Shown: one piece after another, positions 37,959 through 59,198 of the stretch
How the letters are laid out: every line of letters starts with the position of its first letter
Numbering within the stretch: position 1 is the first letter of the stretch
Assembly (NCBI GenBank): GCA_050950285.1
Contig: JBMNHG010000002.1
Coordinates: forward strand, 248,296-312,295
Origin: Kiritimatiellia bacterium
GTDB taxonomy: Bacteria > Verrucomicrobiota > Kiritimatiellia > RFP12 > JBMNHG01
Reading direction: 5' to 3'
Length of the DNA: 64,000 nt
Notes under the pieces: generated by a model
Seen by the model: only the letters and a program-made list of their open reading frames with translations
The model's database searches: none
Told to the model about the DNA's origin: nothing
Program-made: the position numbers and the translations under genes

Positions 37959-37967
37959 GTGGTGAGG
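37959..37967. repeat. Target-site duplication (left), GTGGTGAGG
   Basis: An identical 9-mer directly abuts both inverted-repeat termini. Confidence 0.7.
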
Positions 37968-37992
37968 GGGCGCATCTCCGTTTTGCTACCGG

Positions 37993-39249
37993 CTACGCTG
38001 GGACTGCTGCCTGGGCGCAGCAGTGGTGGAGCTCCCCGTTGACGTACCATATGTACGCCTTCAGGAATGACTCGAGCCCGACTGCGGACCAGAACTGGCC
38101 GCACCGCTTGAAGCGGTTCTGCAACTGCGAACAAAGCGATTCGACCGCGCCGCTTCCGATGGGGCGCCCCAGCCTGCGCTGCCTGAGGTAGTCCATGTGG
38201 TCCTTGTGCTTCATGAAATATTCCGTCTCGCGTTGCACGGCCTTCGCGTCCCAGCATCCATCGCCTTCGTGCGCCTTGAGGATATCGAGTAGCGTCTTCC
38301 CCCCGTACCGCTTGAGCTTCCTGCAACGCTCCGAAAGCCATGCCTTTCGCGCGGGCTCGTCGTCCGGGAAGAGCGCCGCGGCGAGCGCGCCGAGATGCTC
38401 GGTGGCGTGGTAGTAGTCCAGCGTCCCTTCGGCGATGGTGGCGAACCTGTCCTCGAAGATGTTCCAGAGGTAGGTGCCGCCGTCCATGACGATGTAGACG
38501 AACTTCGCCTGCATCATCCCCATCCGCCGCGCCTCGAATTCGACCTTCCGGCCGAAGTCGACCGGATCCGTGCCGGCCGGCATGCAGACTGCGTGCTTGG
38601 TGACAAGCACGCGCCTTCCCCCGCTTGTCTCCGCGGCGTGGGCGAGCTTGAAGATTGTCGCCGACTTCATCTCGCGCCATTCCACGCGCTCGGCGGCTCT
38701 TGGGTTGCGCTTCCCCCATCCCGCCCCGCGGTGCCGGGCGAACCAGCCGTCCATCATGATCACCAGCGTGTCCTCGCTCCCCGCCGCCTCCTCGCAGAGC
38801 CGGGGAAGCTTCCCTTCCTCGCAGCGCCCGGCGATGTCCCTGACGACGTCCATGACCTTGTCGTCGCTGACGGGGCACCCCCATTCCCTGCAGAGCTTCG
38901 AGGCTTTCTCGAACGATCCCGTCTCCATGGCCGTCGCCGCGATCCTCATCTCGAACGCGGGGGAGACGCAGCCGCGCCTGCCGCCGAAAAAGCGCAGGCG
39001 CATCGGCGTCTCGTACCGACCGGACGACCGGCAGAGCCCGTTCTTCACTTTCAGTTCAACCGGCCCGAACCCGGTCGCGACCCTCATGCCGATCGTCCTG
39101 GTCTTGACGAGCGGCTTCCCGTCGCTTCCCTCGGAGGGGGTGCTCTCCGCGAGCCTCTGCAGGTAGTCTTCGTACTCCCTGCGGGCCAGTTCCATGTGTT
39201 TGCGCTGGATTGCCTTTTCGGCTTCGATCAGGTTTTTGCAGGTTTCCAT
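37993..39249 (-). CDS. Transposase, ISKra4-family-like
   Basis: 418 aa with a characteristic ..LDYYHATEHLGA.. region and an RNaseH-like DDE core. Lies inside the IR-bounded element. Confidence 0.7.
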   Translation of the reverse strand: METCKNLIEAEKAIQRKHMELARREYEDYLQRLAESTPSEGSDGKPLVKTRTIGMRVATGFGPVELKVKNGLCRSSGRYETPMRLRFFGGRRGCVSPAFEMRIAATAMETGSFEKASKLCREWGCPVSDDKVMDVVRDIAGRCEEGKLPRLCEEAAGSEDTLVIMMDGWFARHRGAGWGKRNPRAAERVEWREMKSATIFKLAHAAETSGGRRVLVTKHAVCMPAGTDPVDFGRKVEFEARRMGMMQAKFVYIVMDGGTYLWNIFEDRFATIAEGTLDYYHATEHLGALAAALFPDDEPARKAWLSERCRKLKRYGGKTLLDILKAHEGDGCWDAKAVQRETEYFMKHKDHMDYLRQRRLGRPIGSGAVESLCSQLQNRFKRCGQFWSAVGLESFLKAYIWYVNGELHHCCAQAAVPA

Positions 39250-39259
39250 TGTCTTTCCT

Positions 39260-39315
39260 TCCTTTCGCGCTTGATACTATAGCATTCGAATGCTATAGCA
39301 TCAAGCGCGAAAGGA
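39260..39315. repeat. 56-bp near-perfect palindrome between transposase and accessory ORF
   Basis: tcctttcgcgcttgatactatagcattc|gaatgctatagcatcaagcgcgaaagga, with a single mismatch (a39276/c39299). The right arm contains the AAGGAG Shine-Dalgarno (39311-39316) of the accessory ORF. Confidence 0.7.
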
Positions 39316-39323
39316 GAAACCAG

Positions 39324-39620
39324 ATGGAAAAAGACACCTCAGGCGATGAAGAGAAGATTCGTGCCATCAAAGAGCAGATCGTGGCTCTCGGGCCCATGCG
39401 CCCCGGACGGCTCAGCGTGCAATACCAAAAGCCCAAGGAGAAGGCCGGGCCGTTCTACCAGATCAGCTACACGATCCAGAAGCGAAGCCGCTCGGACTAT
39501 GTACGCGAAGCCGATCTGGAACGTGTGAAGGCAGAACTCGAAAACTACCAGACGTTCAAGCGCCTTTGCGAAGAACTGGTTCTGGCCTCGCTGGCACTGG
39601 CAAAGTCGCGACAACGCTAG
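39324..39620 (+). CDS. IS-borne accessory ORF (99 aa), unknown function
   Basis: Good SD 8 nt upstream. Charged, coiled-coil-like protein (MEKDTSGDEEKIRAIKEQIVALGP...). Inside the IS boundaries. Confidence 0.45.
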   Translation: MEKDTSGDEEKIRAIKEQIVALGPMRPGRLSVQYQKPKEKAGPFYQISYTIQKRSRSDYVREADLERVKAELENYQTFKRLCEELVLASLALAKSRQR

Positions 39621-39683
39621 CCCCTCAAAACCTGCCCCAGTCTTCCCGATGGACGAGGTGGGGAGCAAAACGGAGATGCGCCC

Positions 39684-39692
39684 GTGGTGAGG
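39684..39692. repeat. Target-site duplication (right), GTGGTGAGG
   Basis: Identical to the 9-mer at 37959-37967. Confidence 0.7.
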
Positions 39693-39800
39693 TTTTGTGC
39701 TTGACGCCTTTCCACCTCCTTCGCATCATGGCGGCATGGATGGGGGTCGGCTCGTCCCGCCGCCCCCCGGCATGCGGCAACGGTCTTTGCGGGAGTCTCC

Positions 39801-41693
39801 ATGGCGGGTTGTTTCCGAAAGTTGCATACGCTCCGCTCCGCGCGGCTCGCCGCGGTGTCGGCCGGCGCCGGGCTCTCCCCCGGCGGCACGAACACCCTCC
39901 GCCTGCTCCGCGGTTGCTTTTCCGTCAGCCCGCCGCCGCTCGACGGGGCGGACGCCGCGCGGCTTGCCGAGGCGGTCCGGGCCAAGCCCGCCTGTTCCGC
40001 CGCCCTGTGCGGCCTGCTGTCCGGGCGCCGCGAAGGCTGGCTGGCCGAGGACGTCCGGGCGCGGCATCTGCTGGACTCCGGGAAGGCCTCCGAGGCCGCC
40101 GCCGCGTGGGAGGCCATGCTCCGCCGCCGCCGCGGCCCGCCCGACCGCATCGCCTTCGCGCGCTGCGAGGCGCTGGCCGCCTGGAAGCCGGGGAAGGGCA
40201 TCGAGGCGCTGGAGGAGTGGCTGGAGCGCTACAAGGACTCGCCGCTGCGCGAGCGCGCCGCCGCCTGCCACGCCCTGCTGCCGGCCCGCCATGGCGACCC
40301 GGCCGAGGCGGCATCCCGCCTCGGGGCCTTCCTCGGGGAATACCCCGGCAGCCGCTTCGCGCCCGAGGCCCGGCAGGCGCTGGCCAGGGCGCGCGGCGCA
40401 TCGGACCGGCTGGAACAGCTCCGGGCGGCGCAGGCCGCCAAGGAGGAGAGGCGCCGGCGCGACCCGGCGTCGGCCGACCTCGAACGCGCCGAGTCGCTCC
40501 TCTCCCAGGGACGCCACGCCGACGCCGAAAAGGCCTTCCTGTCCTTCCGCGACCGCCGCCGCCATCCGCTGTGGGGGCGCGCCTGGCATGGCCTCGGCAA
40601 AGCCCGCCACGCCCGGGGCGACACGCAGGGCGCTCTCGCCGCCTGGGACGACCTCTGGCGGCGCTCGCTGGCCGACACCAACGTCCTGTGCGCCGCCCGG
40701 GCCCGCCGCGCGGCGGGCGACGCCTGGCTCGAGGATCTCGGCGAGCCGGCCCGCGCCCTGAAGGCCTACGACGAAGCCGCGTCCCGCACCGACTTTTCCG
40801 ACCCCGCCTTCGACCTCAACCGCGGGCTCGCCCTGCTGATGCTCGGGCGCGCCCCGGAGGCCGCGGCCCTCTTCACCCGCCGCCGCGACGCGTCCGCCGG
40901 CGACAAGGCCGAGTTCCTGCGCTGGGACCGCCTCGCGAAGGAGTGCGCCGCCGGACGCCTGGCGCCGCCCCCGCGCGGCCTGCTCCCCGACCAGCGCCGC
41001 GCCCGTACCGACCTGGCGATGGCCGACGCCCTCCTCGCGGCCGGCGAGCCGGCCCGCGCCCTGAGGCTCTACCGCCGCGCGTCCGCCCCCCTGGCGGGCC
41101 ACGAGGGGGCCGACCGGTGCGACCTGGGCATGGCGCTCGCCCTGGCCGCCCTCGGCCGGCCGAAGGAGGCGCTCGCCCTCTACGGGCGTTTCACGGGCGA
41201 ACACGGGCGCAGCCCGCTGGCCGCCGGAGCCCTGCTCCGCGCCGGCACGCTCTGCGCATTGCCCCGCGTGAACGACTTCAAAGGCGCCTGCCAGTGGTTC
41301 GCCCGGGTCGTCGAAAACCACCCCGGCACGCGCGAGGCCGAGGCGGCGGAGTTCTATGCCGCCAAAAGGCTCCACGACCCCTTCGACGACGACCAGCGAA
41401 ACGACCGTCCCCGATTCCCGCATGGCAAGCCCGTCCATCCCGACATCACGCTCTCCCGACATCACGCTCCATTGGGAGGCGGGGAACCCGCTCGCCCTGC
41501 TCGGGGGAACCACGGTTTACACGAACAAAATCGAGATCGACGCCGGGGAGGTCGACTGGCCCCTGGATTACGCCGTCATCCCGCGTCATTCGGCCATTTC
41601 CTTCGCCATCGCCGCCGAGGGCCAGGCCGCCGAGGGCGGCAAGGCGGTGGACATCGTCCACGGGCGCGTCGTCGACGTGGACCTCGACGTTGA
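39801..41693 (+). CDS. TPR-repeat protein; probably the N-terminal part of a single TPR-trunk-toxin gene interrupted by a 16-bp duplication
   Basis: TPR-like helical repeats throughout. The last real residues (..KPVHPDITL) match the N-terminus of module 2 (KPVNPHITLHW), and the tail after nt 41455 is out-of-frame read-through. Removing one 16-bp repeat unit fuses this frame to 41422..43458. Confidence 0.6.
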   Translation: MAGCFRKLHTLRSARLAAVSAGAGLSPGGTNTLRLLRGCFSVSPPPLDGADAARLAEAVRAKPACSAALCGLLSGRREGWLAEDVRARHLLDSGKASEAAAAWEAMLRRRRGPPDRIAFARCEALAAWKPGKGIEALEEWLERYKDSPLRERAAACHALLPARHGDPAEAASRLGAFLGEYPGSRFAPEARQALARARGASDRLEQLRAAQAAKEERRRRDPASADLERAESLLSQGRHADAEKAFLSFRDRRRHPLWGRAWHGLGKARHARGDTQGALAAWDDLWRRSLADTNVLCAARARRAAGDAWLEDLGEPARALKAYDEAASRTDFSDPAFDLNRGLALLMLGRAPEAAALFTRRRDASAGDKAEFLRWDRLAKECAAGRLAPPPRGLLPDQRRARTDLAMADALLAAGEPARALRLYRRASAPLAGHEGADRCDLGMALALAALGRPKEALALYGRFTGEHGRSPLAAGALLRAGTLCALPRVNDFKGACQWFARVVENHPGTREAEAAEFYAAKRLHDPFDDDQRNDRPRFPHGKPVHPDITLSRHHAPLGGGEPARPARGNHGLHEQNRDRRRGGRLAPGLRRHPASFGHFLRHRRRGPGRRGRQGGGHRPRARRRRGPRR

Positions 41694-43458
41694 CGCCAAC
41701 CACGACGGCAAAATTGATGACGCCGACGAGCCCTTGGAGGTGGACCCCGGCGGCTATGTGTGCGTCGGAACCAACAACCTGACGCCGGTCACGCTCAAGT
41801 TGGAGCCCGTCGGCCTGCCCGGCAAACTGACCCTCTCGGCGACGATGGGTGGGGACCGAATCCGCATCTGGAAAGACGCCGGGCGCGCGACCGAGGTGAT
41901 ATTGACCAATGGCTGCGCCCAGGTGGCTCCCGGCACGCTCTACGTCGAGGGGGTCACCAACAGCGCCGCCCTCCGCGACGTGGAACTCCGCCTCGAATAC
42001 GACGAGAACCCGGAGGGCCAGAATAACCGCCTCTTCAAGTGCGAGGACAGGGTGAAGCTGACGGCCGTGAAGGTGGACTTGGATATCGACTCGGACAACA
42101 ACGGAGCCATCGAAGAAGCAGACGAGGCCCAAGAACTTACCGAACCGGGCAAGTTGATCTATCTGAACCATGATGACGACAACAAGAACGACATAGAGGA
42201 CAAGGCCGAGAACACTGCAATTGTCACTGATGAAGATGACCTCCAACCAATCAAGCTTGCATTTTCACCAAACATCGCTGGCGGAAAGATAATCCTTGCT
42301 GCTCCAAGTGGTGGGTCTCGGATTCAAGTTTGGGGAAACTCCACAAAAGGTGTTGCGAGTGAGAAAGTTGACCTGCCGAAGACGTGGACAATAGGCACTG
42401 ACGCTGTCCCTGCAACACTCTATGTCGAGGGCATCGACCCCGGTGCTGCTCAATTGAAATTGGCTTACGAGGTTAACTCGGTCGAAGTTTGCAAGGACGA
42501 GATCAAGTTGGGCATCGTCAAAATTGAGTTCAAGGAACGGGGCGATACAAAATACGGTTATGATAACGGGACCGTTGACAACAACCCTGTTCCCAAATCG
42601 GTTGACACTCCCCCACAGAAGTATGACTGGGTAAACGTTGACAGAGACAACAAGACGACAGATGTGGACGTAGAGATTACTCCGGCGTCGTATGCCAAGT
42701 ACGTTAATTTTATTAGCAGCGATGACGCAAAAACCACATGCAATCCTGTCGCAGCAACTGCAAATCCGCAGAAATTGACCATAACCGGCACAGCCTCGGG
42801 GACATCCCATGTCCAGACGCGACTTGGAACCACAACAGGTGCTAAAGGCACTCGGTTGAATGTGGCCTGTTACAAGCTGGCAGCCCTTAATGTCAATTTC
42901 TATAAGGTAAGTGCCACGGGGCTTGCGCCTGATGGTACCACGGCGGAACAATTCGAAAGTGGCGCGAATGCGTTCCTCAAGCGGGGTGTCAGTGAACTAT
43001 CACTGACCGACAACGGCACCACAATAACTAACTACGATGACAACGCAAATTCTAAACTAGATATCGATGCAACGGCGGGGGATGGCGGAAGTGAATGGGT
43101 CAAGGTGACAGCGGCACTAGGGGCTCCTGTTGGGATGAAACTGCTTCATGTAAAGGCCTTGCGCGTTAACATCGGGGGAACATGGGTCAACGCAACAGGC
43201 TTACGCTATGGTGATTGGACGCTGGTTTCTGACGAGTCAACGAGCAAAGTCAGAACTGTCGCCCATGAGATGCTTCACAAGCTAGGACTGAAAGATACAG
43301 GCCCCAGTGGGAGCAACACTGCAAACATCATGTACTATATGAGCAATGGCACAAAGTACTTTGTGGGGTATTTCAAAGTGGAAGGCGTTCAGACTGGGTC
43401 TGGCACGTCTTACACCCCAAAACAACACGAGCTACAGTGGGAAATGATTTATCGGTGA
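41422..43458 (+). CDS. Polymorphic-toxin-like module 1: conserved trunk + C-terminal HExxH (zincin-like) region
   Basis: Trunk ..GKAVDIVHGRVVDVDLDVDANHDGKIDDADEPLEVDPGG...LTLSATMGGDRIRIWKDAGR..EVILTNGCAQVAPGTLYVEGVTNSAALRDVELRLEYDENP. Reiterated ~100-aa modules. C-terminal ..VAHEMLHKLGL.. (43264-43278). Confidence 0.65.
   Translation: MASPSIPTSRSPDITLHWEAGNPLALLGGTTVYTNKIEIDAGEVDWPLDYAVIPRHSAISFAIAAEGQAAEGGKAVDIVHGRVVDVDLDVDANHDGKIDDADEPLEVDPGGYVCVGTNNLTPVTLKLEPVGLPGKLTLSATMGGDRIRIWKDAGRATEVILTNGCAQVAPGTLYVEGVTNSAALRDVELRLEYDENPEGQNNRLFKCEDRVKLTAVKVDLDIDSDNNGAIEEADEAQELTEPGKLIYLNHDDDNKNDIEDKAENTAIVTDEDDLQPIKLAFSPNIAGGKIILAAPSGGSRIQVWGNSTKGVASEKVDLPKTWTIGTDAVPATLYVEGIDPGAAQLKLAYEVNSVEVCKDEIKLGIVKIEFKERGDTKYGYDNGTVDNNPVPKSVDTPPQKYDWVNVDRDNKTTDVDVEITPASYAKYVNFISSDDAKTTCNPVAATANPQKLTITGTASGTSHVQTRLGTTTGAKGTRLNVACYKLAALNVNFYKVSATGLAPDGTTAEQFESGANAFLKRGVSELSLTDNGTTITNYDDNANSKLDIDATAGDGGSEWVKVTAALGAPVGMKLLHVKALRVNIGGTWVNATGLRYGDWTLVSDESTSKVRTVAHEMLHKLGLKDTGPSGSNTANIMYYMSNGTKYFVGYFKVEGVQTGSGTSYTPKQHELQWEMIYR
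41439..41470 (+). repeat. 16-bp tandem duplication (cccgacatcacgctcY x2) at the TPR/trunk junction
   Basis: Units at 41439-41454 and 41455-41470, with 15/16 identity. Deleting one unit gives an uninterrupted ORF 39801..43458. Confidence 0.7.
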
Positions 43459-43475
43459 GGAAAGGTGCTTTACAG

Positions 43476-44417
43476 ATGAGAACGTTCTTGGCATGTTTTA
43501 CTTTCTTCGCGTTCCAGGCCTTGGTGCGCGCAGAACCTGGCACTGTCGCAGAGGTCCTGAATAACCTCCGGAAGGGAGATGCCCGGGGGTTGCGGACTGA
43601 TCAGTACACAAATGCGGCGAGTGCCGTTGCCTTTCTGGAGAACATCGGTGTTCTGGAAGACGAGAAGATCCGACTGAAGGTGGTGCGGTTCTCGGCAACG
43701 CTGATGCGTCGGGCGGCAAGAGCGGGCTCGCAGCAGGACGAACAGAACGTAGAAGCCTTCACTGGCCAGATGGTGAAGATCCTTAAGGCTGATCCATCTA
43801 GGCGTATCCGGGAAGAGGCCGCGAAGAGTCTTCTGGAAATGGTCTCCCCGCGTGTTCTCGATCGCTATCACGCCGTTCTACGTCTTGCGGCCGAGGAAAG
43901 GAAGGACATCGCTACGCTTCTTGTCTGCGCATCACTGCATTCCTGCGATGCAACGTGGTTGGCGGAATTGGTGCGTACAATGAAACCGGAGTCCCGGATG
44001 GAGAAGCGCCAAATCGACAGCATTCTGGCGCGGTGCGGGGATCAGGCTGCAACAGATCGTCTCATTGATGAAGCAGGTCATGCGCAGGGAATGAGCGATG
44101 TTGAGATTGGTGAGTTGGTCGCCGCTTTGGCCTTTGTGCCTTCCGAACGGGTTCAGATGTTTCTTGGACTAGGTCTTCGCTCTGACACTGTTGTTTCACT
44201 ACCCGGGGGAGGCGCGATTCCCTGGCGCAACTGCTGTGCCCGTTCTTTGGTCCGAATGCACAGGCACGACGAGAGTTTTCCTGTAAAGAGGGACGACTAC
44301 ATGTATAGTGACGATGAGCTTGACAGAATCGAACAGTGGAGTGTGGTTACTCTCGGCATTGCCCCCCGTAGTGGAACACGGAGGAGCTTGAAAGTGACAC
44401 CAGGTATTCATCAGTAG
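43476..44417 (+). CDS. Signal-peptide partner protein 1 (candidate immunity; HEAT/armadillo-like repeats)
   Basis: Starts 18 nt after the module 1 stop. Signal peptide (MRTFLACFTFFAFQALVRA), alpha-helical repeat composition, and AT-richer DNA than the core genome. Confidence 0.55.
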   Translation: MRTFLACFTFFAFQALVRAEPGTVAEVLNNLRKGDARGLRTDQYTNAASAVAFLENIGVLEDEKIRLKVVRFSATLMRRAARAGSQQDEQNVEAFTGQMVKILKADPSRRIREEAAKSLLEMVSPRVLDRYHAVLRLAAEERKDIATLLVCASLHSCDATWLAELVRTMKPESRMEKRQIDSILARCGDQAATDRLIDEAGHAQGMSDVEIGELVAALAFVPSERVQMFLGLGLRSDTVVSLPGGGAIPWRNCCARSLVRMHRHDESFPVKRDDYMYSDDELDRIEQWSVVTLGIAPRSGTRRSLKVTPGIHQ

Positions 44418-44531
44418 TGGCACAGGCATAGGTTCGCGGCAAGAGCGAAGCACCCGGAACCCTCTCTACTGGGTGTCCCCTCCGCTCTAGTTGTCTTTGG
44501 CTCATGCAATGATTTCATTGTCGTCTTTCAA

Positions 44532-46253
44532 ATGAACATCTGGCACAAAGAATCTGTAAAACCCGTGAATCCGCACATCACGCTCCACTGGGCGGGGGTG
44601 CGCGAACTGTGCCTTCTGCACGGGGACGGGACGTTGTTCCCGAACGGCGGGCAGATCGACTCGCGCGCCGTTCCCTCCTGGCCCCTCCGCTTCCGCGTCG
44701 GGCCGCTCGCGCCGACGACGGAGTTCGTGGTGCGCCTTTTCGGCGAAGCCGACAACGTGACGGGCGAGAAGGCGGTGGACATCGTCCACGGGCGCGTCGT
44801 CGACGTGGACCTCGACGTTGACGCCAACCACGACGGCAAAATTGATGACGCCGACGAGCCTTTGGAGGTGGACCCCGGCGGACTGGCCTGCGTCTGCACG
44901 AACAAACTGACCCCGATCATGCTCACGCTTCAGCCCGCCGGACTGACCGGCAGGCTGACCCTCTCGGCAACGATGGGAGGGGACCGAATCCGCATCTGGA
45001 AAGACGCCGGGCGCATGATCGAGGTGGTATTGACCAATGGCTGCGCCCAGGTGGCTCCCGGCACGCTCTACGTCGAGGGGGTCACCAACAGCGCCGCCCT
45101 CCGCGATGTGGAGCTGCGCCTCGAATACGACGAGAACCCGCCGAACCAAAACAACCCCCTTTTCAAGTGCGAGGACAGGGTGAAGCTGACGGCCGTGAAA
45201 ATAGATTTTGTCACTCCCGCCGGTGATCCGGTAAATGCCGCCGTGCAGTCGGGCGACGGGCAAAACGAATTCACCTACTCGACAGCCACTCCCGGCGTTC
45301 TGACGATGAACCTGAAGGCGCACGTCACACCGAGCGGTATCGCCAACCAGATCAAGGGCCTATGCCTGTTTACGGTTGATATGATCGCCGGTTCCACCTT
45401 GGCTTGGGGCTCGTCGAATCCTAACGGCAAGCCGACAGCGAACGGTGATGACCTGTTGGCGACGGTCACGTTCACCGGTTTGCCCGCGAACAATTCCGAC
45501 TTCGGGGCCAAGAAGGCCGCTATCCACTTCAACGCCAGCAAGCAGGATGAAGCGAACTACGAAGTATTCTTTCCCCGAGATGTGGCGAACAATCCTGGTG
45601 GTTCTGATCCAAATTGGTTCTACTACTGGGGTCAGGTTTATGTGAATGCGAACGTTCAATATGTGGCCGCTGCGGCGGCCGGACGCGTACCTGCCATGAC
45701 AGGCTGGACGTACAACTCTGTACCAAGCAAAACTCGCATTGAAATCGGTAGCGGACATCCCGCAAAATACAAATCCTATGGCATCGGAGAGGAAGCGTCG
45801 GGCATTGATCGCTACATAATGACGGGAATACATGAGGAGAAGCATGTGGCACAGATTGCTGCCGCAGATGCTCTTCTGCCTACCAGCGGTGCCGATTCCT
45901 TTCGCTTCGGTTGGTCATGGAATCAATCCACTCATAATCATTGGACAAAGGGGCCTGATGGGCAATGGGGTGTTGCCGGAGTTGATGATGACGGGAATGG
46001 TGTAGTTGATGACGCAGCTGTGGCACCACCCTTTGAACCTGGGAACGGTGACGACATCAGCCTCGACCGCGCAACATGGCCGTGGTGGCCAAATACGTGG
46101 ACACTGCCCGGCGGAGTTTACGCCACCATCCATCCCATTGAAGGCGAGGCCGTCAAGGCTGCGGATGACGCAATGAATGAAAACGACTATGCGCCCCAAG
46201 ATTGGGGCAAGCCCGGCAAGAACCACAAGACGGTAAACAAGTGGGATGATTGA
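44532..46253 (+). CDS. Polymorphic-toxin-like module 2: same trunk, unrelated C-terminal region with HEEKH
   Basis: Nucleotides 44773-44883 differ from 41640-41750 by 1 nt. The trunk diverges after ..FKCEDRVKLTAVKIDF. C-terminal ..GIHEEKHVAQ.. (45831-45845). Begins only 10 aa before the trunk homology (MNIWHKESVKPVNPHITLHW). Confidence 0.65.
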   Translation: MNIWHKESVKPVNPHITLHWAGVRELCLLHGDGTLFPNGGQIDSRAVPSWPLRFRVGPLAPTTEFVVRLFGEADNVTGEKAVDIVHGRVVDVDLDVDANHDGKIDDADEPLEVDPGGLACVCTNKLTPIMLTLQPAGLTGRLTLSATMGGDRIRIWKDAGRMIEVVLTNGCAQVAPGTLYVEGVTNSAALRDVELRLEYDENPPNQNNPLFKCEDRVKLTAVKIDFVTPAGDPVNAAVQSGDGQNEFTYSTATPGVLTMNLKAHVTPSGIANQIKGLCLFTVDMIAGSTLAWGSSNPNGKPTANGDDLLATVTFTGLPANNSDFGAKKAAIHFNASKQDEANYEVFFPRDVANNPGGSDPNWFYYWGQVYVNANVQYVAAAAAGRVPAMTGWTYNSVPSKTRIEIGSGHPAKYKSYGIGEEASGIDRYIMTGIHEEKHVAQIAAADALLPTSGADSFRFGWSWNQSTHNHWTKGPDGQWGVAGVDDDGNGVVDDAAVAPPFEPGNGDDISLDRATWPWWPNTWTLPGGVYATIHPIEGEAVKAADDAMNENDYAPQDWGKPGKNHKTVNKWDD

Positions 46254-46274
46254 TTCTTTTCGGAGGAGAACATT

Positions 46275-46952
46275 ATGAATAATCGATTAGTGACAATGTT
46301 GCAGGCGATTGTGTTGATGGTTATATTGCTAACCACAGGTCGAGTGTTTGCTGGAAATGCCGAAGTGGAAAACATAGACATGGTTGATACGAAACAGTTG
46401 CTTTCAGCGCAGACGATGGAGCGGAGTCAGGCGCTGGACAGGTTGACTGCAAAATATCGCGAGGTCTCGGCGTCGCTCTTAAAGACACTGGAGGAGGCCA
46501 AGACCGAGTTTAGAACGGATCGCCGTTATCATTCGCCTCTTCACTCCGCCATACTGGCAGTCGATGCATGGCAGGTGATTGATGCCGATGCGCTTCTCCT
46601 TTCGATGGTTGACTACGAGTTAGATCCAAGTTCCTTGCCATTGGGAATGGATGTACCAGGCGACTATTTTTATCCCGCAGCCAAGACGTTGGTCCGCTTG
46701 CGCGTGGACATGGCGAAAGTGGAACGAGCGCTTGGAGCCACAGAGGACCCGAAAGCGCTGAGGATATTGACATGGGTGTTACTTGAACGAGGAGAAGACG
46801 TCGAGAAGGCGAAGATGGCTTTAGCCGATGCAAGCGGCAAAAGTCATGGGGCCACGGAAAAGCGGAATATCAGCGAAGCGCTAGAGCTGCTCAACAACCC
46901 TTCGGAGTTGTTGCCGATGCCGTCGAGGGGTGACCATCCTTCATCGAAGTGA
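46275..46952 (+). CDS. Signal-peptide partner protein 2 (candidate immunity)
   Basis: Starts 22 nt after the module 2 stop. N-terminal MNNRLVTMLQAIVLMVILLTTGRVFAG. Low GC, no similarity to partner 1. Confidence 0.55.
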   Translation: MNNRLVTMLQAIVLMVILLTTGRVFAGNAEVENIDMVDTKQLLSAQTMERSQALDRLTAKYREVSASLLKTLEEAKTEFRTDRRYHSPLHSAILAVDAWQVIDADALLLSMVDYELDPSSLPLGMDVPGDYFYPAAKTLVRLRVDMAKVERALGATEDPKALRILTWVLLERGEDVEKAKMALADASGKSHGATEKRNISEALELLNNPSELLPMPSRGDHPSSK

Positions 46953-47186
46953 CTGCTTTACGGCCTACGCACCTGACACGCCGCGTGCTGGAAGAAAGGC
47001 CACGCGGCGCGCCAGGTGCTCCGGCCTTGCTCCGGCGCTATCGCGCTTCCGGGGCACCTCCGCGCTGACGCGCTCCGGTGGTGGACTCGCTCACACGTTG
47101 CCCTTTCCGGCGCACCCCCGTGTTGCCTCCAGGCCGACACCTTGCATACATTGACAAATGGAATGACGGATTGATACGCTGTCCGC

Positions 47187-48941
47187 ATGGAATCAAGCCT
47201 CTGCATGAATGGCGCGAATGAACGGACGGCTTGGGAATATGCCGTGTGTAGCGGCCAAGACAACCACGACGACGAGCCGCCGGAGGAGGATCCCGGCGGC
47301 TACGCCTGCGTCTGCACGAACAAATTGACGCCGCTCAATCTGAAGGTGCAACCAACCGACCTGCCCGGCAAGGTCAGACTCTCGGCGACGGGCGGCCAGC
47401 GCATCAGAGTCTGGGAGAACGCCGGCCGCACCGGCGAGGTGGTATTGACCAATGGCTGCGCCCAAGTGGCGCCCGGCACGCTCTACGTCGAGGGGGTCAC
47501 CAACAGCGCCGCCCTCCGCGACGTGGAGCTGCGCCTCGAATACGACGAGAACCCGCCGGGCCAGAGCAACCCCCTCTTCAAGTGCGAGGACAGGGTGCGG
47601 CTGGTCGTCATAAAAGTGGACTTAGACATTTGGAACGGGGGAGCCGATTTGGACAACGGTGAGGCTGCCGGCCCCCAGGGGGCACAGGTCCCGGACGCCG
47701 ACGAGGAATCCGTCGGAGCATACATCCTCGTCAACTGGGATGATGACGACGGTGACGGCAAAATCAATGGCACCGGAAGTGGCTGGATATCCTTTCCAGT
47801 GCCAGATCTCGACGAATCAACGGCCATTACCGACGAGGATAATCTAGCGCAGTTGAAACTCAATCTTACGCCGTTACTTGATCTTGGAACGGTTGAACTG
47901 GAAGTGAGTGGTACCGATGCGGGCAAGATCAAGCTCTGGACCGAGTCAACCAAAGGAACGGTGGTCACACTCACATCCAACAAGAAGACATGGAACCTAT
48001 CAAACCCGACGCAGAAGAGCGAGTTTCAGAACTTAATGGCCAACAGCCTGTGGATCGAGGGAGTTGACGCGGGATCGGGTGAACGGGCTGCAACCTTTAC
48101 ATTGTGTTTCAAGGACAGTGGTGGAACTGAAATCTGCAATGACGTTAACAAGGCAACGTTGGTGATGCTGAATCTTGCGAACGTCGCTGGTAGAGAGGTT
48201 GACAATGATGCTCTTGCGGAGAGAGGGCATACGGCAGTAGTCGGTCGCTATGATGGCAGCTGCACCAAGGCCGATTTGCTCAATGCCGCGCACTATACAC
48301 TCTATGAGGCAGATGGGGGTGGAGATTGGGCCGGCACAGAACCAGGACCACGTGAAGCCCTTCTTACTCATGTTACGGCCAGACCAGGCCGCGAGTTTTT
48401 TGGTTCATTGTCACCCTTCTTGACGTCGTACTACAACAGCTCGTCAATGCCTAACACAGCGCAGGGTTACAGAACTCGTTTGAAGATATTGCTGGTGGCC
48501 AGGCGCTTGATTGATAACACCGCCAGCATAGGATATACAAAGTTCAACGCTGTCCTACCCGGAAACTGGAACGGCAATTTGGGCACGATTACAGATCTCC
48601 GATGCGACGGGTTCGTCGAAGTCTGCTATGAGTGGTCGGGCGTCAATTCGTGGGGAAGGATCGCAGGAGGTGGAGCCCGGTACAGCATCCTCGTTGCAGG
48701 GAATCAAGATGACCATAATGAATGGGTATGGGGAGACGTCCCGCAAGATGGAGCGAGTGACTTCTGGGCATGGCTGATGCCGATAACACAGATCGGATAT
48801 GCCGACACCTATATTGACAGCCATTATCCCCCATACACCAACGGTGACTTCGACTATACGGCGAACAATTTTGAAGGGACTTTCTGGGAGAGTGCCTTTT
48901 CCTCTCAACAACTCGTCATGCCAACGCTTTCAAATCCGTGA
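47187..48941 (+). CDS. Polymorphic-toxin-like module 3: 5'-truncated trunk + third unrelated C-terminal region
   Basis: Trunk homology starts abruptly at ..DNHDDEPPEEDPGGYACVCTNKLTP (the ~80 aa found in modules 1/2 are missing). ..VVLTNGCAQVAPGTLYVEGVTNSAALRDVELRLEYDENPP is identical to copy 2 at the protein level. The C-terminal half is unique with no HExxH. Confidence 0.6.
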   Translation: MESSLCMNGANERTAWEYAVCSGQDNHDDEPPEEDPGGYACVCTNKLTPLNLKVQPTDLPGKVRLSATGGQRIRVWENAGRTGEVVLTNGCAQVAPGTLYVEGVTNSAALRDVELRLEYDENPPGQSNPLFKCEDRVRLVVIKVDLDIWNGGADLDNGEAAGPQGAQVPDADEESVGAYILVNWDDDDGDGKINGTGSGWISFPVPDLDESTAITDEDNLAQLKLNLTPLLDLGTVELEVSGTDAGKIKLWTESTKGTVVTLTSNKKTWNLSNPTQKSEFQNLMANSLWIEGVDAGSGERAATFTLCFKDSGGTEICNDVNKATLVMLNLANVAGREVDNDALAERGHTAVVGRYDGSCTKADLLNAAHYTLYEADGGGDWAGTEPGPREALLTHVTARPGREFFGSLSPFLTSYYNSSSMPNTAQGYRTRLKILLVARRLIDNTASIGYTKFNAVLPGNWNGNLGTITDLRCDGFVEVCYEWSGVNSWGRIAGGGARYSILVAGNQDDHNEWVWGDVPQDGASDFWAWLMPITQIGYADTYIDSHYPPYTNGDFDYTANNFEGTFWESAFSSQQLVMPTLSNP

Positions 48942-48958
48942 AAGGTAGGAAACAAATC

Positions 48959-49735
48959 ATGAGGAAGACTCTCTTACTCTTGTGCGCCTCGCTCGCATTT
49001 TCCTTGGTGGGGCTTGCAAATGATGATGCTTTGTTGAAAGCTCTTGCAGCCGGAGATCGCACGGCCAGGAAGAATGCGGCAATGCAGATCGAGCAACGGT
49101 CAGTGAAAGACCTGCTCGCTCTTGCGGAAGAAAGCATTAAGAGCGAGAGCCTTGAACCTTCGGCAGCCATCTATGTCTTCCACCAGATACTGTGTGTTGC
49201 CTCTGAAAAGGGATTCACTGTTCATGATGCCGCTGCGTTGATCAGAATGCCTGGTGCTTCCGAGTTCAGGCAGGCACTTATAGACTGGATTAGAGAATTT
49301 GGAACCAAGAGAATTAATTCCGACGACGCTGCTGGAATGCTTCCTGAGATAGATGCGTATTTCCAGTCCAAGCAGGAGACTTTGCGATTCAGAACAACTG
49401 CACACAAACTGTCACGCGATCTGGCATGGAAGATCCGCGTCGACTTGAACGAGAAGGAGAACATGCAACCTGATCAGCGTGAGAAGATGAAGCAACTTCT
49501 CTGTGGGCATATCGATCACGTCTGCCAAGTTGTTGCCGACAGCACCGAAGCTGATGAAGCTGTTGAGGTATTTGCAGGTTGCGTCCCGTACTATCGCCTC
49601 TATGCTCGCGAGGGACTCTATCAAGATGGCGACCTTCAAGATGCGCTTCAACAAGCTGCCAATCAGAGGAACCGTAGCCCAAAGACGAAGAAGGCTATTC
49701 AGGCAATGATCGCCGAGCTGTGGAAGGCAGAATAG
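48959..49735 (+). CDS. Signal-peptide partner protein 3 (candidate immunity)
   Basis: MRKTLLLLCASLAFSLVGLA signal peptide; lies in a 3'-terminal overlap/abutment with module 3; low GC. Confidence 0.55.
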   Translation: MRKTLLLLCASLAFSLVGLANDDALLKALAAGDRTARKNAAMQIEQRSVKDLLALAEESIKSESLEPSAAIYVFHQILCVASEKGFTVHDAAALIRMPGASEFRQALIDWIREFGTKRINSDDAAGMLPEIDAYFQSKQETLRFRTTAHKLSRDLAWKIRVDLNEKENMQPDQREKMKQLLCGHIDHVCQVVADSTEADEAVEVFAGCVPYYRLYAREGLYQDGDLQDALQQAANQRNRSPKTKKAIQAMIAELWKAE

Positions 49736-49920
49736 GGCCGGACATATTCAAAACTATCAACCAAGGTTATCGTTTCAACCCCGGTTTTGGCCGTTTTCGA
49801 GCGTTTTGCTTCAAAAACGGTCGAAAACGTCGTTTTTCACACGCTCCGTTTTCGAAAAGCGCTTGGTGACAAACCTACCCCGTTTACAAGTTTTCGAGCC
49901 CTTCCTTATAACGCGCGGCG

Positions 49921-50997
49921 ATGTATCTCAAATGTCACTCGCGTCACAAAGACGGCAAAACCCACCACTACTGGAACGTCATGGAGCGTGTCGGCGGCGC
50001 CGACGGGCGTCGCTTCGAGCGCCAGGTGCTCTGTTTGGGAGAGTTGGGCGTCGAGGAGAAGCGCGACTGGGAGGCTCGCATCGAGAGGGTTTCAGGCGGC
50101 GGGCGAAGACCCGGGCGACTGCTTTTCGAGCTGCCCGAGGAGCCGCCCGACGAGCGCCTCGCCGAAGACCGCGCGCCATCCAGGCCCGAAGCCGTCCGAA
50201 TCCGCCTTTCAGGGTTCTCGCTGAAGAACCCGCGCCAGTACGGCGGCTGCTGGCTGTTCTGCACGCTCTGGGGGAAGCTCGGGCTCGACGCGTTCTGGCT
50301 TCCGCTCCTGCCGGCCTCGCGCAAGGGCACCCCGCGGGTTGACGTGCTCAAGATCCTCTGCGCCAACCGGCTCCTCGACCCATCGAGCGAATGGCGCGTC
50401 CACCGGGAGTGGTTCAAGCGCTCGGCCATGGGGGACTTGCTCGGCTGCGGGGAGGAGCTCTCGGCCAAGGACACGCTCTACCGCTACCTGGATCTTCTCC
50501 TCGAGCACAAGGACTCGTTCTTCCAGCACCTGCGCGGGCGCTGGACGGACATGTTCAACGCCTCGTGCGACGTGCTCCTCTGCGACCTAACGAGCACGTA
50601 CTTCGAGAGCGACCCGCCCTTCCCGCCGGGGGACAAGCGCATGCACGGCTACAGCCGGGACCATCGCGGCGACTGCGTGCAGATCGTCATCGCGCTGGTG
50701 ATCACGCCCGACGGGCTCCCCGTGGCCTACGAGGTCATTCACCACAGCCGGGAATCGCGCATCGAAAGCCACGTCTTCGTCGCCTTCATCGCCTACAGCC
50801 TCTCGGCGATCCAGATGATCGACGTGCACTTCCCCATCGGCGACGCCCGGGATTTGGTCTTCTCCCGCTACACCACGCCGGAGGCGGACCAGAAGCTGAT
50901 CCTGGACGCTCTCGGATGGGAGCTTCCCCCGCAGAACCCGCCGAAAATCACGACCGGAGGGAAAGTCGAAACTGGCCGTCTGGCGACAGACTTTTAA
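49921..50997 (+). pseudogene. IS1634/IS4-superfamily transposase, C-terminally truncated remnant
   Basis: Hallmark N-terminus MYLKCHSRHKDGKTHHYWNVMER and the first DDE block LLCDLTSTYFE. At 358 aa it lacks the distal catalytic region of ~550-aa IS1634 transposases. Confidence 0.55.
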
Positions 50998-52778: not shown

Positions 52779-55700
52779 TTACCGGATCGTGATCTGGAAG
52801 AAGCGGCAGTCGCCGGGATGGGTATCGACGGCCTCGATCGGGAAGGCGGTGTCCGTGAGCTCGAGTTCGCCGGGCACGCCGCCGGGTTCCGTGTAGCGGA
52901 GCAGCTTGACGACGCCTCGCGCGGTCGTGGGCTTGCCCACGCCATCGACTTCGATCGCGCCACCGATTGTGACGGCGCCCGTCGCCGGGTCGATCGCGAT
53001 GCGGGTGATCCGCAGTTCGATTTCACCGTTCTCGGGCGCAAGGCCCGTGAGATAGCACCGGCCGAGCTGCGTCGCGTCGCCGGTGAAGGCCGAGAGCGCG
53101 GCCTGCCCGTCGGCGTCGGCGCCGAGCGCTGCGAACCACTGGCGGAGGATGTCGTTCGTGGACGCCGCGGCGACCACGGCCTTGGCGGCCGCGTTCGCCG
53201 GCGGGAGGTACAGCGGATGCCACTGCGACGGCTCTGTCACCAGTGCGCCGAACTCGTCGGCCACGAACGAGGCGCCGGTTCCGTCGCACGCGCCATCCCA
53301 CCAGTCGGCATCGACATACAGCGCCTGGCACACTGCGCCGGCGGGATCGGTCACGGAAAGCGCGAGCTTGCCGTTCGTGAGTTTCTCCAGCGGCCAGTAC
53401 CCGGACTTGGCGAGCGTGAGCGCCTTGCCCTTCTTGATGGCGACGGAGTTCGTGATCGTGAGGTGGAGCGACGGGGCGTTCGTGGTCACGACGCCGTTCT
53501 TCTCGCTGACCTTGGCGGCGGTGATCGTGATGTCGGCGAGGTCGATTGCCGCGGCGGCATCGAGGTTCGTGACGACGAGGTATTCCGAGCCGTCGCCTTT
53601 GCCGTCCGCAGTACTGCTCATCACTTCCGCAATGCGGAGCGAGTTGGGCAGCGCCGTGAAGGAGGGCCGCCACTGCGCGCGCTCGAGGATGTTCGTGGCG
53701 GGTTCTTTCGCGATGAAGGACGCGCCCGTGCCATCGCATGCGCCGCCCCACCACGAGGTATCGATGTAGAGCGTCTGGATGGTGGCGCCGGAAGCGGCGT
53801 AGAGCCGTGCGTCGACCTTTCCGTTCGTGATTTTTTGCGTCGGGCCGCTCCAGTATTCCGCCTTCATGCAGGGGATCGATTCGCCAGCCCCGAGGATTTC
53901 GCCGGAAGCGAAGGTGAAGTCGCACTTCGGGGATTCGCCGTGCTTCGCGCAGGTCACGCGCACGCCTTCGAGGTTGACGCCCGCCACGGGGGAGGTGTTG
54001 GTGATGACGATGTATTCGGAACCGTCGCCGCCGCCGTCGGCGGTGCAGCTCATGATCTCGACGATGCGGAGCGCGTCCTCGGGTTCGGCGTACGGGATGG
54101 AGGGTTCCTGCGAGACGACGGCTTCGGTGAGGGCGCTCCATTCGCCCGTCGACGCGTCGTAGGCGCGGGCGAGCACGCGCGTGGGCCTGTCGGAGATGGC
54201 GACGATCGCGTTCACGGAGTCGGCCGCCGTTCCCAGGCTGCAGTCCCAGTAGAGGTCGGACGAGCCGCTGTTGCACTGGTGGACTTCGACCGCGAGGACG
54301 TTCGTGCCGTCACGCAGCAGGTTGACCGGGATCTCGATCGAGTGCTCGTAGTAGGTGTTCTGCTCCGGCGCGCCGACCGTCGTGTTGGCGAACGTGTCGT
54401 ATCCGACATCGCCCGGGTTCATGTGGTGCCGTTCGATCTCGACGCCGTTCAGGTAGAGCACGTAGCCGTCGTCGGCGAGGATGTCGCCGACGAGGCGCGT
54501 GACGGTCGCGGCGTTGGATCCGCCGGGGATGCCGATGGTCTTGCGGAAGTAGGTCGTGATGACCTGCGTGCCGGAATCGCCGTGGTTGATGTAGCGGTGG
54601 GTCGCAGTGCCGACGGCATTGCCGTTGCCACCGACGACGCCGAGGATGCCGTTGCCGTGATCCCAGGACGAATCGTCGAACGCGACGGAATTCCAGGCGT
54701 TGCCGGAGGCGTCGTCGGCGGGCTTGTTGCCCCAGTCGTAGAAGCGCCAATCGGCGTTCTTCGCCACGAGCGCGATCGGCTCGGCGGCATCGCGTGTCAC
54801 GAGCGTGGCGGTGGCGGAAGGCGCATTGCCGTCGCGCGGGTCGGAGCCGTCGGTCGTGTAGTAGAACGGCGTGCCGCACGTGAGCACGAACGGGGTTTCG
54901 GAATCGAGTTGTCCGGAGTAGGCCGAGGCGGAAGGCGCGTCGATGGACGGGAACCAGCCGTGGTTGCGGTAGTGCTGCACGAGATATGGCGTACGGCGGG
55001 AGATGAAGTTCAAGGACGTGGCGCACCCCCGGTTCAGCCACGTGTTGCGGCCCCAGTCGTTGTGGCCCCAGCGCGCGAGTTCGCAGACGACCATGCTGTC
55101 GATCTCGGCCATGCGCTTGCGGAAGCGCCCGGTGGCCTTGGCGGGAGTGAGCGCGCCATCGCCGAAGAGGTGCTTCTGGATCCGGTCGGCGAAAACGGCG
55201 CGGTACTCTGCGTTGTCGAGCAGCTTGTAGTGGAGCTCGGCGGGGTTGAAGGCGCGGAGTTCCCCGAAGGTCTCGGGACGGTAGCCGGTCGTGCCGCGGA
55301 GCAGGCTGTCGGTCTCGGGGCCGCCGCCGAAACCGAGCGAGTGCTCGGCATCGTGGCGGAGCCAGATGAAGCCGGTCGAAGCCCCGGTGCGGTTACGCAG
55401 GCCGTACATGTTGTTCGCCATGTTGTCGGCGGCCGGGGAGTCGTTGTCGACCGCGTAATGGACGTTGATCATGAAGTCCATGAGGTTGGTGGCGTCCACG
55501 AGGACCGGATACGCGGGATTGCGCGTGCCGTCGGGATTCTTGCCGAGTACGCGGTAGTAGTTGTTGGAATAGCTTCCCCCGTAGCCTTCGTTCTCGGTGA
55601 TGTCGCGCAACAGCGTGAAGGCCTCCATGTCGCCGTCGGAGGCGGTCGTCTGGTAGCCCGGCTGCGAGGTCTTGATGAGATCCCAATCGTCGTCGTCGCC

Positions 55701-59045: not shown

Positions 59046-59198
59046 GGTGGTATCGTACCCCATTCCCGCAATGCACCGCAATCCGATAATTGGCCTGTAC
59101 GGTTCACGGGATGGAACCCTGCTTGCAAGGCGGGAAATCCAGGGCCATCACACGACATTGGTTTGACACCCGGAAGAGCATGGGGTACCTTTCCGCCC

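Follow-up and report, generated by a model that had tools for sequence, protein, structure and literature searches.

The 16-bp tandem duplication at the junction between the TPR and trunk reading frames is best explained as a recent, strain-specific +1 frameshift within a single coding sequence, which left a polymorphic-toxin-like cassette gene with a disabled toxin part; we assign this reading a probability of about two in three. The whole stretch of DNA that was analysed, here called the window, is 64,000 nucleotides in length. The gene is one of a family, as yet uncharacterised, that Kiritimatiellia and Lentisphaerae carry in multiple copies. The copy in the window is not an intact gene with one lesion, but already a deletion derivative that lacks the signal-like segment and the middle domain and has an insertion sequence (IS) just upstream. 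We infer that the source DNA contains the duplication, the two-unit form being known from one assembly only.

Tandem duplication and reading frames

The unit TCCCGACATCACGCTC occurs twice head-to-tail at 41438-41469 (period 16, 2.0 copies, 100% matches), which confirms the duplication described in the sequence-only reading at the TPR/trunk ORF junction. In this phasing both 16-nt units are identical; the earlier phasing cccgacatcacgctcY (41439-41470) gives the same repeat offset by one base. The features at the junction are:

41438..41453, plus strand: duplication unit 1, TCCCGACATCACGCTC, frame 0, encodes (H)PDITL
41454..41469, plus strand: duplication unit 2, extra copy of TCCCGACATCACGCTC, frame 1, encodes (S)PDITL and moves the downstream coding frame by +1
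41454..41693, plus strand: out-of-frame tail of the annotated 630-aa TPR ORF (MGI6494734.1), about 80 residues, Arg/Gly/Pro-rich, with a chance stop; GC3 signal in frame 1
41470..43458, plus strand: module 1 trunk and variable C-terminal domain, frame 1

The string across the unit-to-unit junction of the two-unit allele is ACGCTCTCCCGACATC.

For 64 kb of the window's composition, the chance expectation of a perfect 16-mer tandem is about 6e-5. The duplication was the sole perfect tandem reported in the window by our own scan (units of 10-39 nt, complexity filter on), the filter having dropped a perfect 12-nt GC-rich tandem at 16398-16421 that is listed by TRF. When up to two mismatches were allowed, the 16-mer occurred three times versus 0.05 expected, and the third occurrence is the homologous site in module 2 (44570). 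The unit starts and finishes with TC, equivalent to 2 nt of microhomology. Replication slippage would be the most likely origin of the duplication, for which this TC...TC could have provided the microhomology. Folding at the junction is like that of shuffled sequence (z = -0.13), and a special DNA structure was rejected.

Frame 0 holds the TPR ORF (39801-41693), frame 1 the downstream ORF (ATG 41356 or 41422, to 43458). The third-position GC signal follows frame 0 until about 41400 and frame 1 beyond, and by the same measure the frame-0 tail past the repeat is without coding signal. Deletion of one unit in silico yielded an uninterrupted 1213-aa ORF, which reads ..RFPHGKPVHPDITLHWEAGNPLALLGG.. 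and bears out the earlier statement that removing one unit restores the frame; in every relative examined the site lies inside one coding sequence. A coding signal that persists in the shifted frame, together with unbroken single-frame homologues, is the pattern of a frameshift pseudogene. Ribosomes starting at ATG 39801 would enter the 80-residue out-of-frame tail and terminate at 41693. The trunk and the metzincin-like C-terminal domain would no longer be translated from this start and are probably not expressed, and the candidate immunity gene downstream would remain intact.

The TPR ORF and the gene that follows the trunk have NCBI proteins with consecutive accession numbers. The trunk ORF has no NCBI protein, and exact look-ups from either ATG gave no record. 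The exact 630-aa product is recorded only by NCBI, on one contig. Because of the 16-bp duplication, the annotation thus gives a 630-aa 'TPR protein' with a nonsense tail beside an unannotated ORF, and caution is advised: split ORFs in such loci are not to be taken for separate genes.

A true gene fission would instead have produced a separate TPR protein and a trunk-toxin protein starting at ATG 41356 or 41422. Two in-frame ATGs indeed lie 5' of the second unit, which keeps PDITLHW in the downstream frame; ATG 41356 has a GGAG 4 nt upstream, and orphan modules (module 2, P0027) begin at this HPDITLHW motif. Nevertheless, we regard fission as highly improbable, since the TPR product would end in the nonsense tail, the arrangement is found in no relative and the trunk ORF is without annotated protein. 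Coupled genes overlap by 1-4 nt, but here the upstream ORF extends 270-340 nt beyond both ATGs. No promoter-like site was found near the junction, an internal promoter was rejected, and local folding does not differ from shuffled sequence. The earlier proposal of reinitiation at ATG 41422 did not hold up: besides the missing promoter-like site and NCBI protein, there is no purine-rich stretch before this codon and the overlap is about 270 nt. Neither a programmed frameshift nor a coupled gene pair is indicated, given the absence of a two-unit relative, the folding result and the length of the overlap.

Locus organisation and cassette modules

The full form of the family consists of an N-terminal hydrophobic signal-like segment, a TPR region, a beta-rich middle domain, the trunk and a variable C-terminal domain. 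Intact members have about 1450 aa; the intact paralog in the same MAG (P0010) has 1459 aa. Compared to the paralogs, the window allele is without 160 aa, comprising the hydrophobic signal-like segment and the first TPRs, and without the 199-aa middle domain. The hydrophobic segment (Kyte-Doolittle 2.9 at P0010 residues 22-32) is missing from the window ORF. Upstream of and within module 1 the following parts were recognised:

37968..39683, minus strand: insertion sequence, 1716 nt, with 23-nt terminal inverted repeats (37968-37990 and 39661-39683)
37993-39249, minus strand: IS transposase ORF, UPF0236-type
39210-39620, plus strand: IS-borne DUF6788 ORF
39701..39729, plus strand: promoter-like site TTGACG, 17 nt, CATCAT, in the upstream region common to all paralogs
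39801..39855, plus strand: start codon and first 18 codons, MAGCFRKLHTLRSARLAA, same sequence as in the sister strains' short-form allele
39856..41364, plus strand: TPR 'body', 1509 nt or 503 codons, frame 0, GC3 about 0.95, profile matches to TPR_16, TPR_2 and others
41365..41437, plus strand: conserved linker, frame 0, encodes (K)RLHDPFDDDQRNDRPRFPHGKPVH

The IS sits 117 bp 5' of ATG 39801 and is flanked by a 9-bp target duplication, GTGGTGAGG, at 37959-37967 and 39684-39692; homology to paralogs begins at 39692. At this site the IS is missing in L004, L011 and L013-L016 and found in L012, L017 and L008, and copies also occur at other loci and in other samples. IS-positive samples include SRR31065934 and JGI 3300060803. 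Contigs retrieved via the IS transposase held other insertion sites only, none of them with the leader-to-TPR junction of the window. L008 was considered as a third allele of the window locus, with a full-length gene and the IS, and was rejected: the IS in L008 is cut short at 39447, and both the gene and the ORF downstream of it correspond to P0001. More likely, L008 represents the P0001 locus, connected via the IS, and it was used as a paralog only.

The TPR body is 99.47% identical to the corresponding part of the full-length paralog (L008 10602-12110) and is bounded by the imperfect 7-nt repeats GCCGCGG (39849-39855) and GCCGCCA (41358-41364). The linker joins the TPR body (window) or the 18-codon leader (sister strains) without a break. 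In the window allele, the leader-to-TPR-body junction string is GCTCGCCGCGGTGTCGGCCGG and the TPR-body-to-linker junction string is TATGCCGCCAAAAGGCTCC.

The trunk is conserved, with acidic, calcium-loop-like DxDxDANxDGxIDDxDE motifs, up to a LEYDENP..LFKCEDRV motif (41992-42054). Near 42000 the GC content drops from about 0.70 to about 0.51, and the lower-GC C-terminal domain of module 1 carries HEMLHKLGLKD (43264-43296) and a conserved NIMYY (43324-43338). Downstream, two orphan modules and three small genes follow:

43476..44417, plus strand: gene after module 1, 313 aa (MGI6494735.1), hydrophobic N-terminus, candidate immunity protein
44532..46253, plus strand: orphan module 2, 573 aa, family homology from KPVNPHITLHW, trunk block 90% identical to module 1, other C-terminus
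46275..46952, plus strand: gene after module 2, 225 aa, hydrophobic N-terminus, candidate immunity protein
47187..48941, plus strand: orphan module 3, 584 aa, starts within the trunk, different C-terminus
48938..49735, plus strand: gene after module 3, 258-265 aa, hydrophobic N-terminus, candidate immunity protein

Modules 1-3 have a common block of 247-300 nt with 84-90% identity, which ends at LEYDENP..LFKCEDRV; beyond it they diverge. As pointed out in the sequence-only reading, the N-terminus of module 2 (MNIWHKESVKPVNPHITLHW) matches the junction: its KPVNPHITLHW is the motif that contains the duplication in module 1. The paralogs P0010 and P0025-P0027 combine the same trunk with other C-termini, and more modules that differ in this domain are present in the same MAG. 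L008 has three orphan modules lacking the N-terminal secretion part, and in L033 an ankyrin-repeat gene takes the place of the small gene with the hydrophobic N-terminus.

Judged from the arrangement of the genes, this module organisation appears to be that of polymorphic toxin loci with orphan toxin/immunity cassettes, in which the C-terminal domains would act as toxins and the small genes as putative immunity genes. Searches of Pfam, NCBIfam and PDB sequences returned nothing above threshold for the trunk, the three C-terminal domains or the three small genes. The full-length protein gave TPR-type matches only in Pfam and NCBIfam, with the trunk blank and no known delivery or trafficking domain. 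In the C-terminal domain of module 1, the H, E and H residues do not vary, and an N-x-M further downstream is conserved in eight homologues. All weak profile matches at HEMLHKLGLKD were to reprolysin, matrixin or collagenase, with E values (0.001 to about 0.9) that do not reach the family threshold. The AlphaFold model of this domain (pLDDT 52.6) is too poor for fold comparison.

Comparison with sister strains and paralogs

In three independent JGI assemblies (L004, L011, L014) the window locus has one unit, no IS and no TPR segment, and forms a continuous 710-aa ORF. The flanks of the one-unit and two-unit forms are at least 99.9% identical between the strains. A second-locus short form (P0025/L033) also has a single unit and a continuous ORF. 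TPR and trunk are fused through a single unit in P0001 and P0010 (same MAG), P0011/L008, P0003/P0004/P0005 (other species) and L001 (GTDB genome), and the paralogs and other-species copies read ...HGKPVHPDITLHWEAG... across it. Among the fetched loci, no two-unit copy was found versus six independent single-unit junction copies, which contradicts the option, left open in the sequence-only reading, that relatives always carry the two-unit form. That reading also took the ancestral or real gene to be a fusion of about 1214 aa. The fusion of TPR and trunk is supported by the relatives; the size is not, as intact members have about 1450 aa, the closest strains have 710 aa without the TPR, and no sequence encoding the 1213-aa form was found anywhere.

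The three length differences in the gene (480 nt, net 594 nt and 1509 nt) are all in frame, and the short form stays open at two loci. This hints that translation of the leaderless genes matters and that 'decayed pseudogene' may understate their function.

The duplication might also be an assembly or consensus artefact: the source would have a single unit, and the joining of read or graph segments at the edge of a multi-copy repeat would have added the other 16 nt. We consider this unlikely, yet deserving of some weight. The two-unit form comes from a single assembly, and the site ends a block shared with paralogs at 96-100% identity, with the homology of one paralog stopping exactly at 41453. 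Short-read contigs break within 100 nt of the duplication (L005/L006 begin at 41525/41561, L011/L014 end there), and it is at sites of this kind that assembly joins most easily go wrong. In addition, P0001 from the same MAG has an apparent one-base frameshift after DENPQGQDNP, so the assembly may hold errors elsewhere. On the other hand, about 31 kb of the window (25059-56253) equals independent, Illumina-type short-read contigs in length, with no indel besides the IS and the TPR body. The assembly is therefore accurate in this part, insertions of 16 bp are not its usual error, and ordinary sequencing error is unlikely, in agreement with the earlier judgement on the duplication; the homopolymer-indel errors that had been suspected elsewhere in the window were not seen in the 31 kb compared. 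Consensus polishing normally removes a 16-nt insertion that is without read support. Furthermore, the allele has two other real structural differences, the IS with its target-site duplication and the TPR body, indicating a distinct strain in which private mutations are expected.

Logan contigs retrieved via the gene after module 1 were short and stopped before the junction. Scans of metagenome contigs (junction flanks 0-16 nt apart; two-unit 31-mer) gave zero matches, and these are uninformative because the one-unit form, known in JGI samples, was equally missing.

Besides the frameshift that we favour, the position of the duplication suggests a further explanation. The duplication falls in the HPDITLHW-coding DNA, where several other rearrangement breakpoints of the family lie: orphan modules start there, one paralog deletion begins right after it, and 73 nt upstream is the 1509-nt TPR segment, which some alleles have and others lack, with exact boundaries. 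This DNA could be a favoured site for the cutting, joining and exchange of cassettes, with the duplication as an exchange scar or a reversible switch to silence and re-arm the toxin; we hold this to be improbable. As a switch, the unit would toggle between one and two copies in the population and turn translation of the toxin part on or off. Microhomology-mediated tandem duplications revert at a high rate, and slippage or recombination can precisely remove a perfect tandem copy (PMC8639346). The two forms occur in very close strains, at a site within a motif holding other family breakpoints. A switch is still doubtful to a similar degree, since there are two copies only, with 2 nt of flanking microhomology. 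The one-unit strains are also without the IS and the TPR body and hence do not represent a pure toggle, no sample has both forms on the same background, and the 'on' state of the window allele would still be without the signal-like segment. The site also does not behave as a phase-variable simple-sequence locus: one or two units were seen, two solely in this assembly.

Relation to known systems

Polymorphic toxin loci with orphan toxin/immunity cassettes are known, for example, from Rhs and CdiA systems (PMC3150448, PMC3967940, PMC4436062). As in these loci, the long N-terminal part is conserved and gives way, past a conserved motif (here LEYDENP..LFKCEDRV), to a C-terminal domain that varies sharply, and a small gene stands after each variable domain. 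The downstream orphan modules have likewise lost all of the conserved region but its 3' part and may recombine with the main gene; lower-GC cassettes, frequent IS elements and rearrangements are further shared traits. In contrast to Rhs/CdiA, no Rhs/YD repeats, PAAR, VgrG, TPS, haemagglutinin repeats, LXG or other known delivery domain was detected. The N-terminal part is instead a TPR region with a Sec-like signal, and the trunk has TSP3/dockerin-like acidic loops, with faint hints only of a protein-arginine-deiminase N-domain. HEMLHKLGLKD and the conserved Met of module 1 resemble the HExxHxxGxxH/D zinc site and Met-turn of metzincin-type metalloproteases, at sub-threshold profile matches.

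The duplication itself resembles short-tandem-duplication frameshift pseudogenes (PMC8639346) in being a perfect head-to-tail copy within a coding sequence, with a length that is not a multiple of three. The TC...TC at the unit ends and the single copy in close relatives are as in microhomology-mediated tandem duplications (PMC8639346), from which it differs in having 2 nt of microhomology only and in affecting a gene that is already a deletion derivative. Taken by itself it carries little weight: it adds one inactivating mutation to the others of a multi-copy gene family that evolves fast. Of wider relevance is the family: toxin-like, previously undescribed and carried by Kiritimatiellia and Lentisphaerae, it combines polymorphic C-termini with a TPR region at the N-terminus, and no delivery domain is recognisable in it. 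Three differences at this locus separate strains with 99.9% identity, namely an IS insertion, an exactly bounded in-frame segment of 1.5 kb and the 16-bp duplication, and the locus is therefore a useful marker of strain-level turnover of conflict systems.

The duplicated unit and the reading frame

The 16-nt unit in the DNA coding for HPDITLHW stands twice in the window, at 41438-41469 (...CCCGTCCA TCCCGACATCACGCTC TCCCGACATCACGCTC CATTGGG...). Tandem Repeats Finder (TRF) lists it with period 16, 2.0 copies and 100% matches. It was the sole perfect tandem duplication reported in a window scan for units of 10-39 nt, whose complexity filter removed a perfect 12-nt GC-rich repeat listed by TRF (16398-16421). 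The chance expectation for such a perfect tandem at the base composition of the window is about 6e-5. The duplication placed by the sequence-only reading at 41439-41470 is the same repeat, with the phase moved by one base, and is confirmed. The features at this locus are:

37968-39683: insertion sequence (IS), 1716 nt, complete, with 23-nt inverted repeats and a 9-bp target duplication (GTGGTGAGG); contains a UPF0236-type transposase and a divergent DUF6788 ORF
39801-41693: 630-aa TPR ORF, frame 0
41356 or 41422 (ATG) to 43458: downstream trunk ORF, frame 1

Frame 0 has a third-position GC of about 0.95 until about 41400, and frame 1 one of 0.85-0.89 from there on. This move between frames indicates that real coding runs on past the repeat in a frame shifted by +1; the annotated TPR ORF closes with ~80 residues of out-of-frame read-through. 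In silico deletion of one unit yields a 1213-aa ORF reading ..RFPHGKPVHPDITLHWEAGNPLALLGG.. at the junction. The event is of a known kind, a frameshift by short tandem duplication; the cassette it affects is decaying and belongs to a polymorphic-toxin-like family.

Translation from 39801 would run into a nonsense tail ending at 41693. The earlier proposal of separate trunk translation, by reinitiation at ATG 41422, is unsupported, since no promoter-like site was found near the junction, the upstream ORF overlaps either start by 270-340 nt and the consecutive NCBI accession numbers include no protein for the trunk ORF. No purine-rich stretch precedes ATG 41422, while ATG 41356 has GGAG 4 nt upstream; the local fold at the junction is unremarkable. 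Most likely, the toxin part is silenced and the downstream small gene is kept.

The TPR-trunk family and further lesions of the window allele

The 630-aa product is an exact match to MGI6494734.1, from a Kiritimatiellia MAG (1.08-Mb contig). Two paralogs come from this MAG: P0010 (1459 aa, intact) and P0001 (1254 aa, with an apparent frameshift near its end). Both read ...RPRFPHGKPVHPDITLHWEAGNPLALLGG... across one unit. Single-unit read-through was also observed in P0011 (JGI), in P0003, P0004 and P0005 from other species and at genome locus L001. This continuous reading in paralogs and other species indicates that the fused TPR-trunk architecture, as proposed from the sequence alone, is the family norm. 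Full-length members begin with a hydrophobic segment (AILVVLAAAPLLHA, Kyte-Doolittle 2.9), followed by a TPR region, a beta-rich middle domain, a linker with HPDITLHW, a conserved trunk with acidic DxDxDANxDGxIDDxDE loops and a variable C-terminal domain.

P0001 lies outside the window. From about residue 1075, its ..YDENPQGQDNP is followed by PLQVRGQGAADG.., apparently LFKCEDRVKL with the frame changed by one extra base; this would be a one-base frameshift. Two internal deletions, both in frame, were seen in a 700-aa member from another Kiritimatiellia species (P0006, locus L003; 6 contigs from several sources). One of them links the TPR region straight to the trunk. In-frame deletion derivatives thus recur in the family.

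Compared to the paralogs, the window allele has two in-frame gaps. One, of 160 aa right after residue 18, takes in the hydrophobic segment as well as the first TPRs; the other removes 199 aa between EFYAA and KLHDPFDDD. Hence, of the sequence-only reading, the observed duplication and frame switch stand, while its interpretation holds in part: an intact ancestral gene of ~1214 aa is not borne out. Even with one unit, the product of the window allele would be without the signal-like segment. The interest lies more in the family, which is uncharacterised, and in its strain-level rearrangements than in the duplication event.

Strain-level variation at the locus

Comparison contigs were fetched by exact neighbouring proteins of the locus. 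Contigs from three JGI samples (L004, L011, L014), with flanks at least 99.9% identical to the window on both sides, have no IS, no TPR body (39856-41364, 1509 nt, in frame; its place in L004 is 6849/6850) and a single unit. In them, the frame stays open for 710 aa from the same ATG (MAGCFRKLHTLRSARLAA|ERLHDPFDDD...HGKPVHPDITLHWEAG...). A second short-form gene of the same population (L033 8001-9539, P0025; JGI 3300064082) lies at another chromosomal locus; it has the identical leader|ERLHDPF junction, a single unit, a different C-terminal domain and an ankyrin-repeat gene after it. The leaderless short architecture thus stays open at at least two loci.

The window allele can be described as the short form with the TPR body added exactly at the short-form junction. 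Both ends of the TPR body fall no more than 1 nt from where homology to full-length paralogs ends. The body is 99.47% identical to a paralog, compared to 96% for the adjacent leader and 86-96% for the trunk. Imperfect 7-nt repeats, GCCGCGG and GCCGCCA, lie on either side, and slippage between the two would produce the short form exactly. Gene conversion between architecturally different paralogs is an alternative that could transfer the indel precisely. The event may have run in either direction. Multiple independent structural breakpoints cluster at the HPDITLHW DNA, namely the starts of module 2 (window 44560) and P0027, a module deletion in L008 (15492-15520, ..ITLHW directly to KAVDIVHG, right after the motif) and the 16-nt duplication.

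The IS lies 117 bp upstream of ATG 39801. Some samples have it at this site and others do not, and further copies were found at several other loci and in other samples. L012 and L017 bear it at the window site, both ending inside it. A perfect 28-nt palindrome (39260-39315) lies between its two ORFs. In L008 (9955/9957; JGI 3300053716), a truncated IS ends at window-equivalent 39447 and runs directly into a paralog-type upstream region at 39692. The next gene is full-length and matches P0001. Such a structure reflects either an IS-mediated rearrangement linking two loci or a short-read mis-join via the IS.

Between 25059 and 56253, the sole differences between the window and short-read contigs of several samples are a few substitutions, the IS, the TPR body and the 16 nt. 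The absence of any further small indel argues against a noisy assembly, and the homopolymer errors noted earlier were not recovered in this half of the window. The proper target duplication of the IS marks the window allele as a clearly distinct strain, in which private mutations are expected. Among all fetched loci, six independent junctions have a single unit and none has two; neither the window's leader-to-TPR junction nor the duplication occurs in an independent sequence. The position of the duplication at the edge of a paralog-shared block, where short-read contigs break, and the fact that the two-unit form is known from a single assembly speak for an artefact, which we consider unlikely. 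The duplication is probably a genuine strain-specific mutation (probability about 0.65).

Cassette layout around module 1

Module 1, the TPR-plus-trunk gene, is followed by two orphan modules that carry the 3' part of the conserved region:

up to 43458: module 1, then a 313-aa gene
44532-46253: module 2, own small gene downstream
47187-48941: module 3, own small gene downstream

The three share a block of 247-300 nt (84-90% identity), beyond which the sequences diverge. GC drops at about 42000 from about 0.70 to about 0.51. Both the variable C-terminal domains and the small genes that follow them lie within a lower-GC island (42000-50000, 0.51-0.61 compared to about 0.67 around it). Logan/JGI short-read contigs repeatedly begin or stop at 42042, 44798 and 41525-41890, the edges of the repeated trunk block. 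The C-terminus of module 1 features HEMLHKLGLKD and a conserved N-x-M; its metzincin matches are all sub-threshold.

Polymorphic toxin loci with orphan toxin/immunity cassettes have been described (PMC3150448, PMC3967940, PMC4436062). The array of modules 1-3 with small downstream genes has the same layout; a known delivery domain was not detected. By this analogy, we infer a putative toxin/immunity function.

At the end of the array, a 358-aa ORF (49921-50997) with transposase-like wording (MYLKCHSRHKDGKTHHYWNV..) overlaps other ORFs. It has no Pfam match, its product is also called on JGI contigs and it may be a truncated IS transposase. A 30-nt tandem repeat (56210-56267, 1.9 copies, 92% matches) overlaps a long ORF on the minus strand (52779-59081). 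On JGI contigs this ORF is called as a gene of 2094 aa, with product matches to LTD, CotH and Fn3_assoc.
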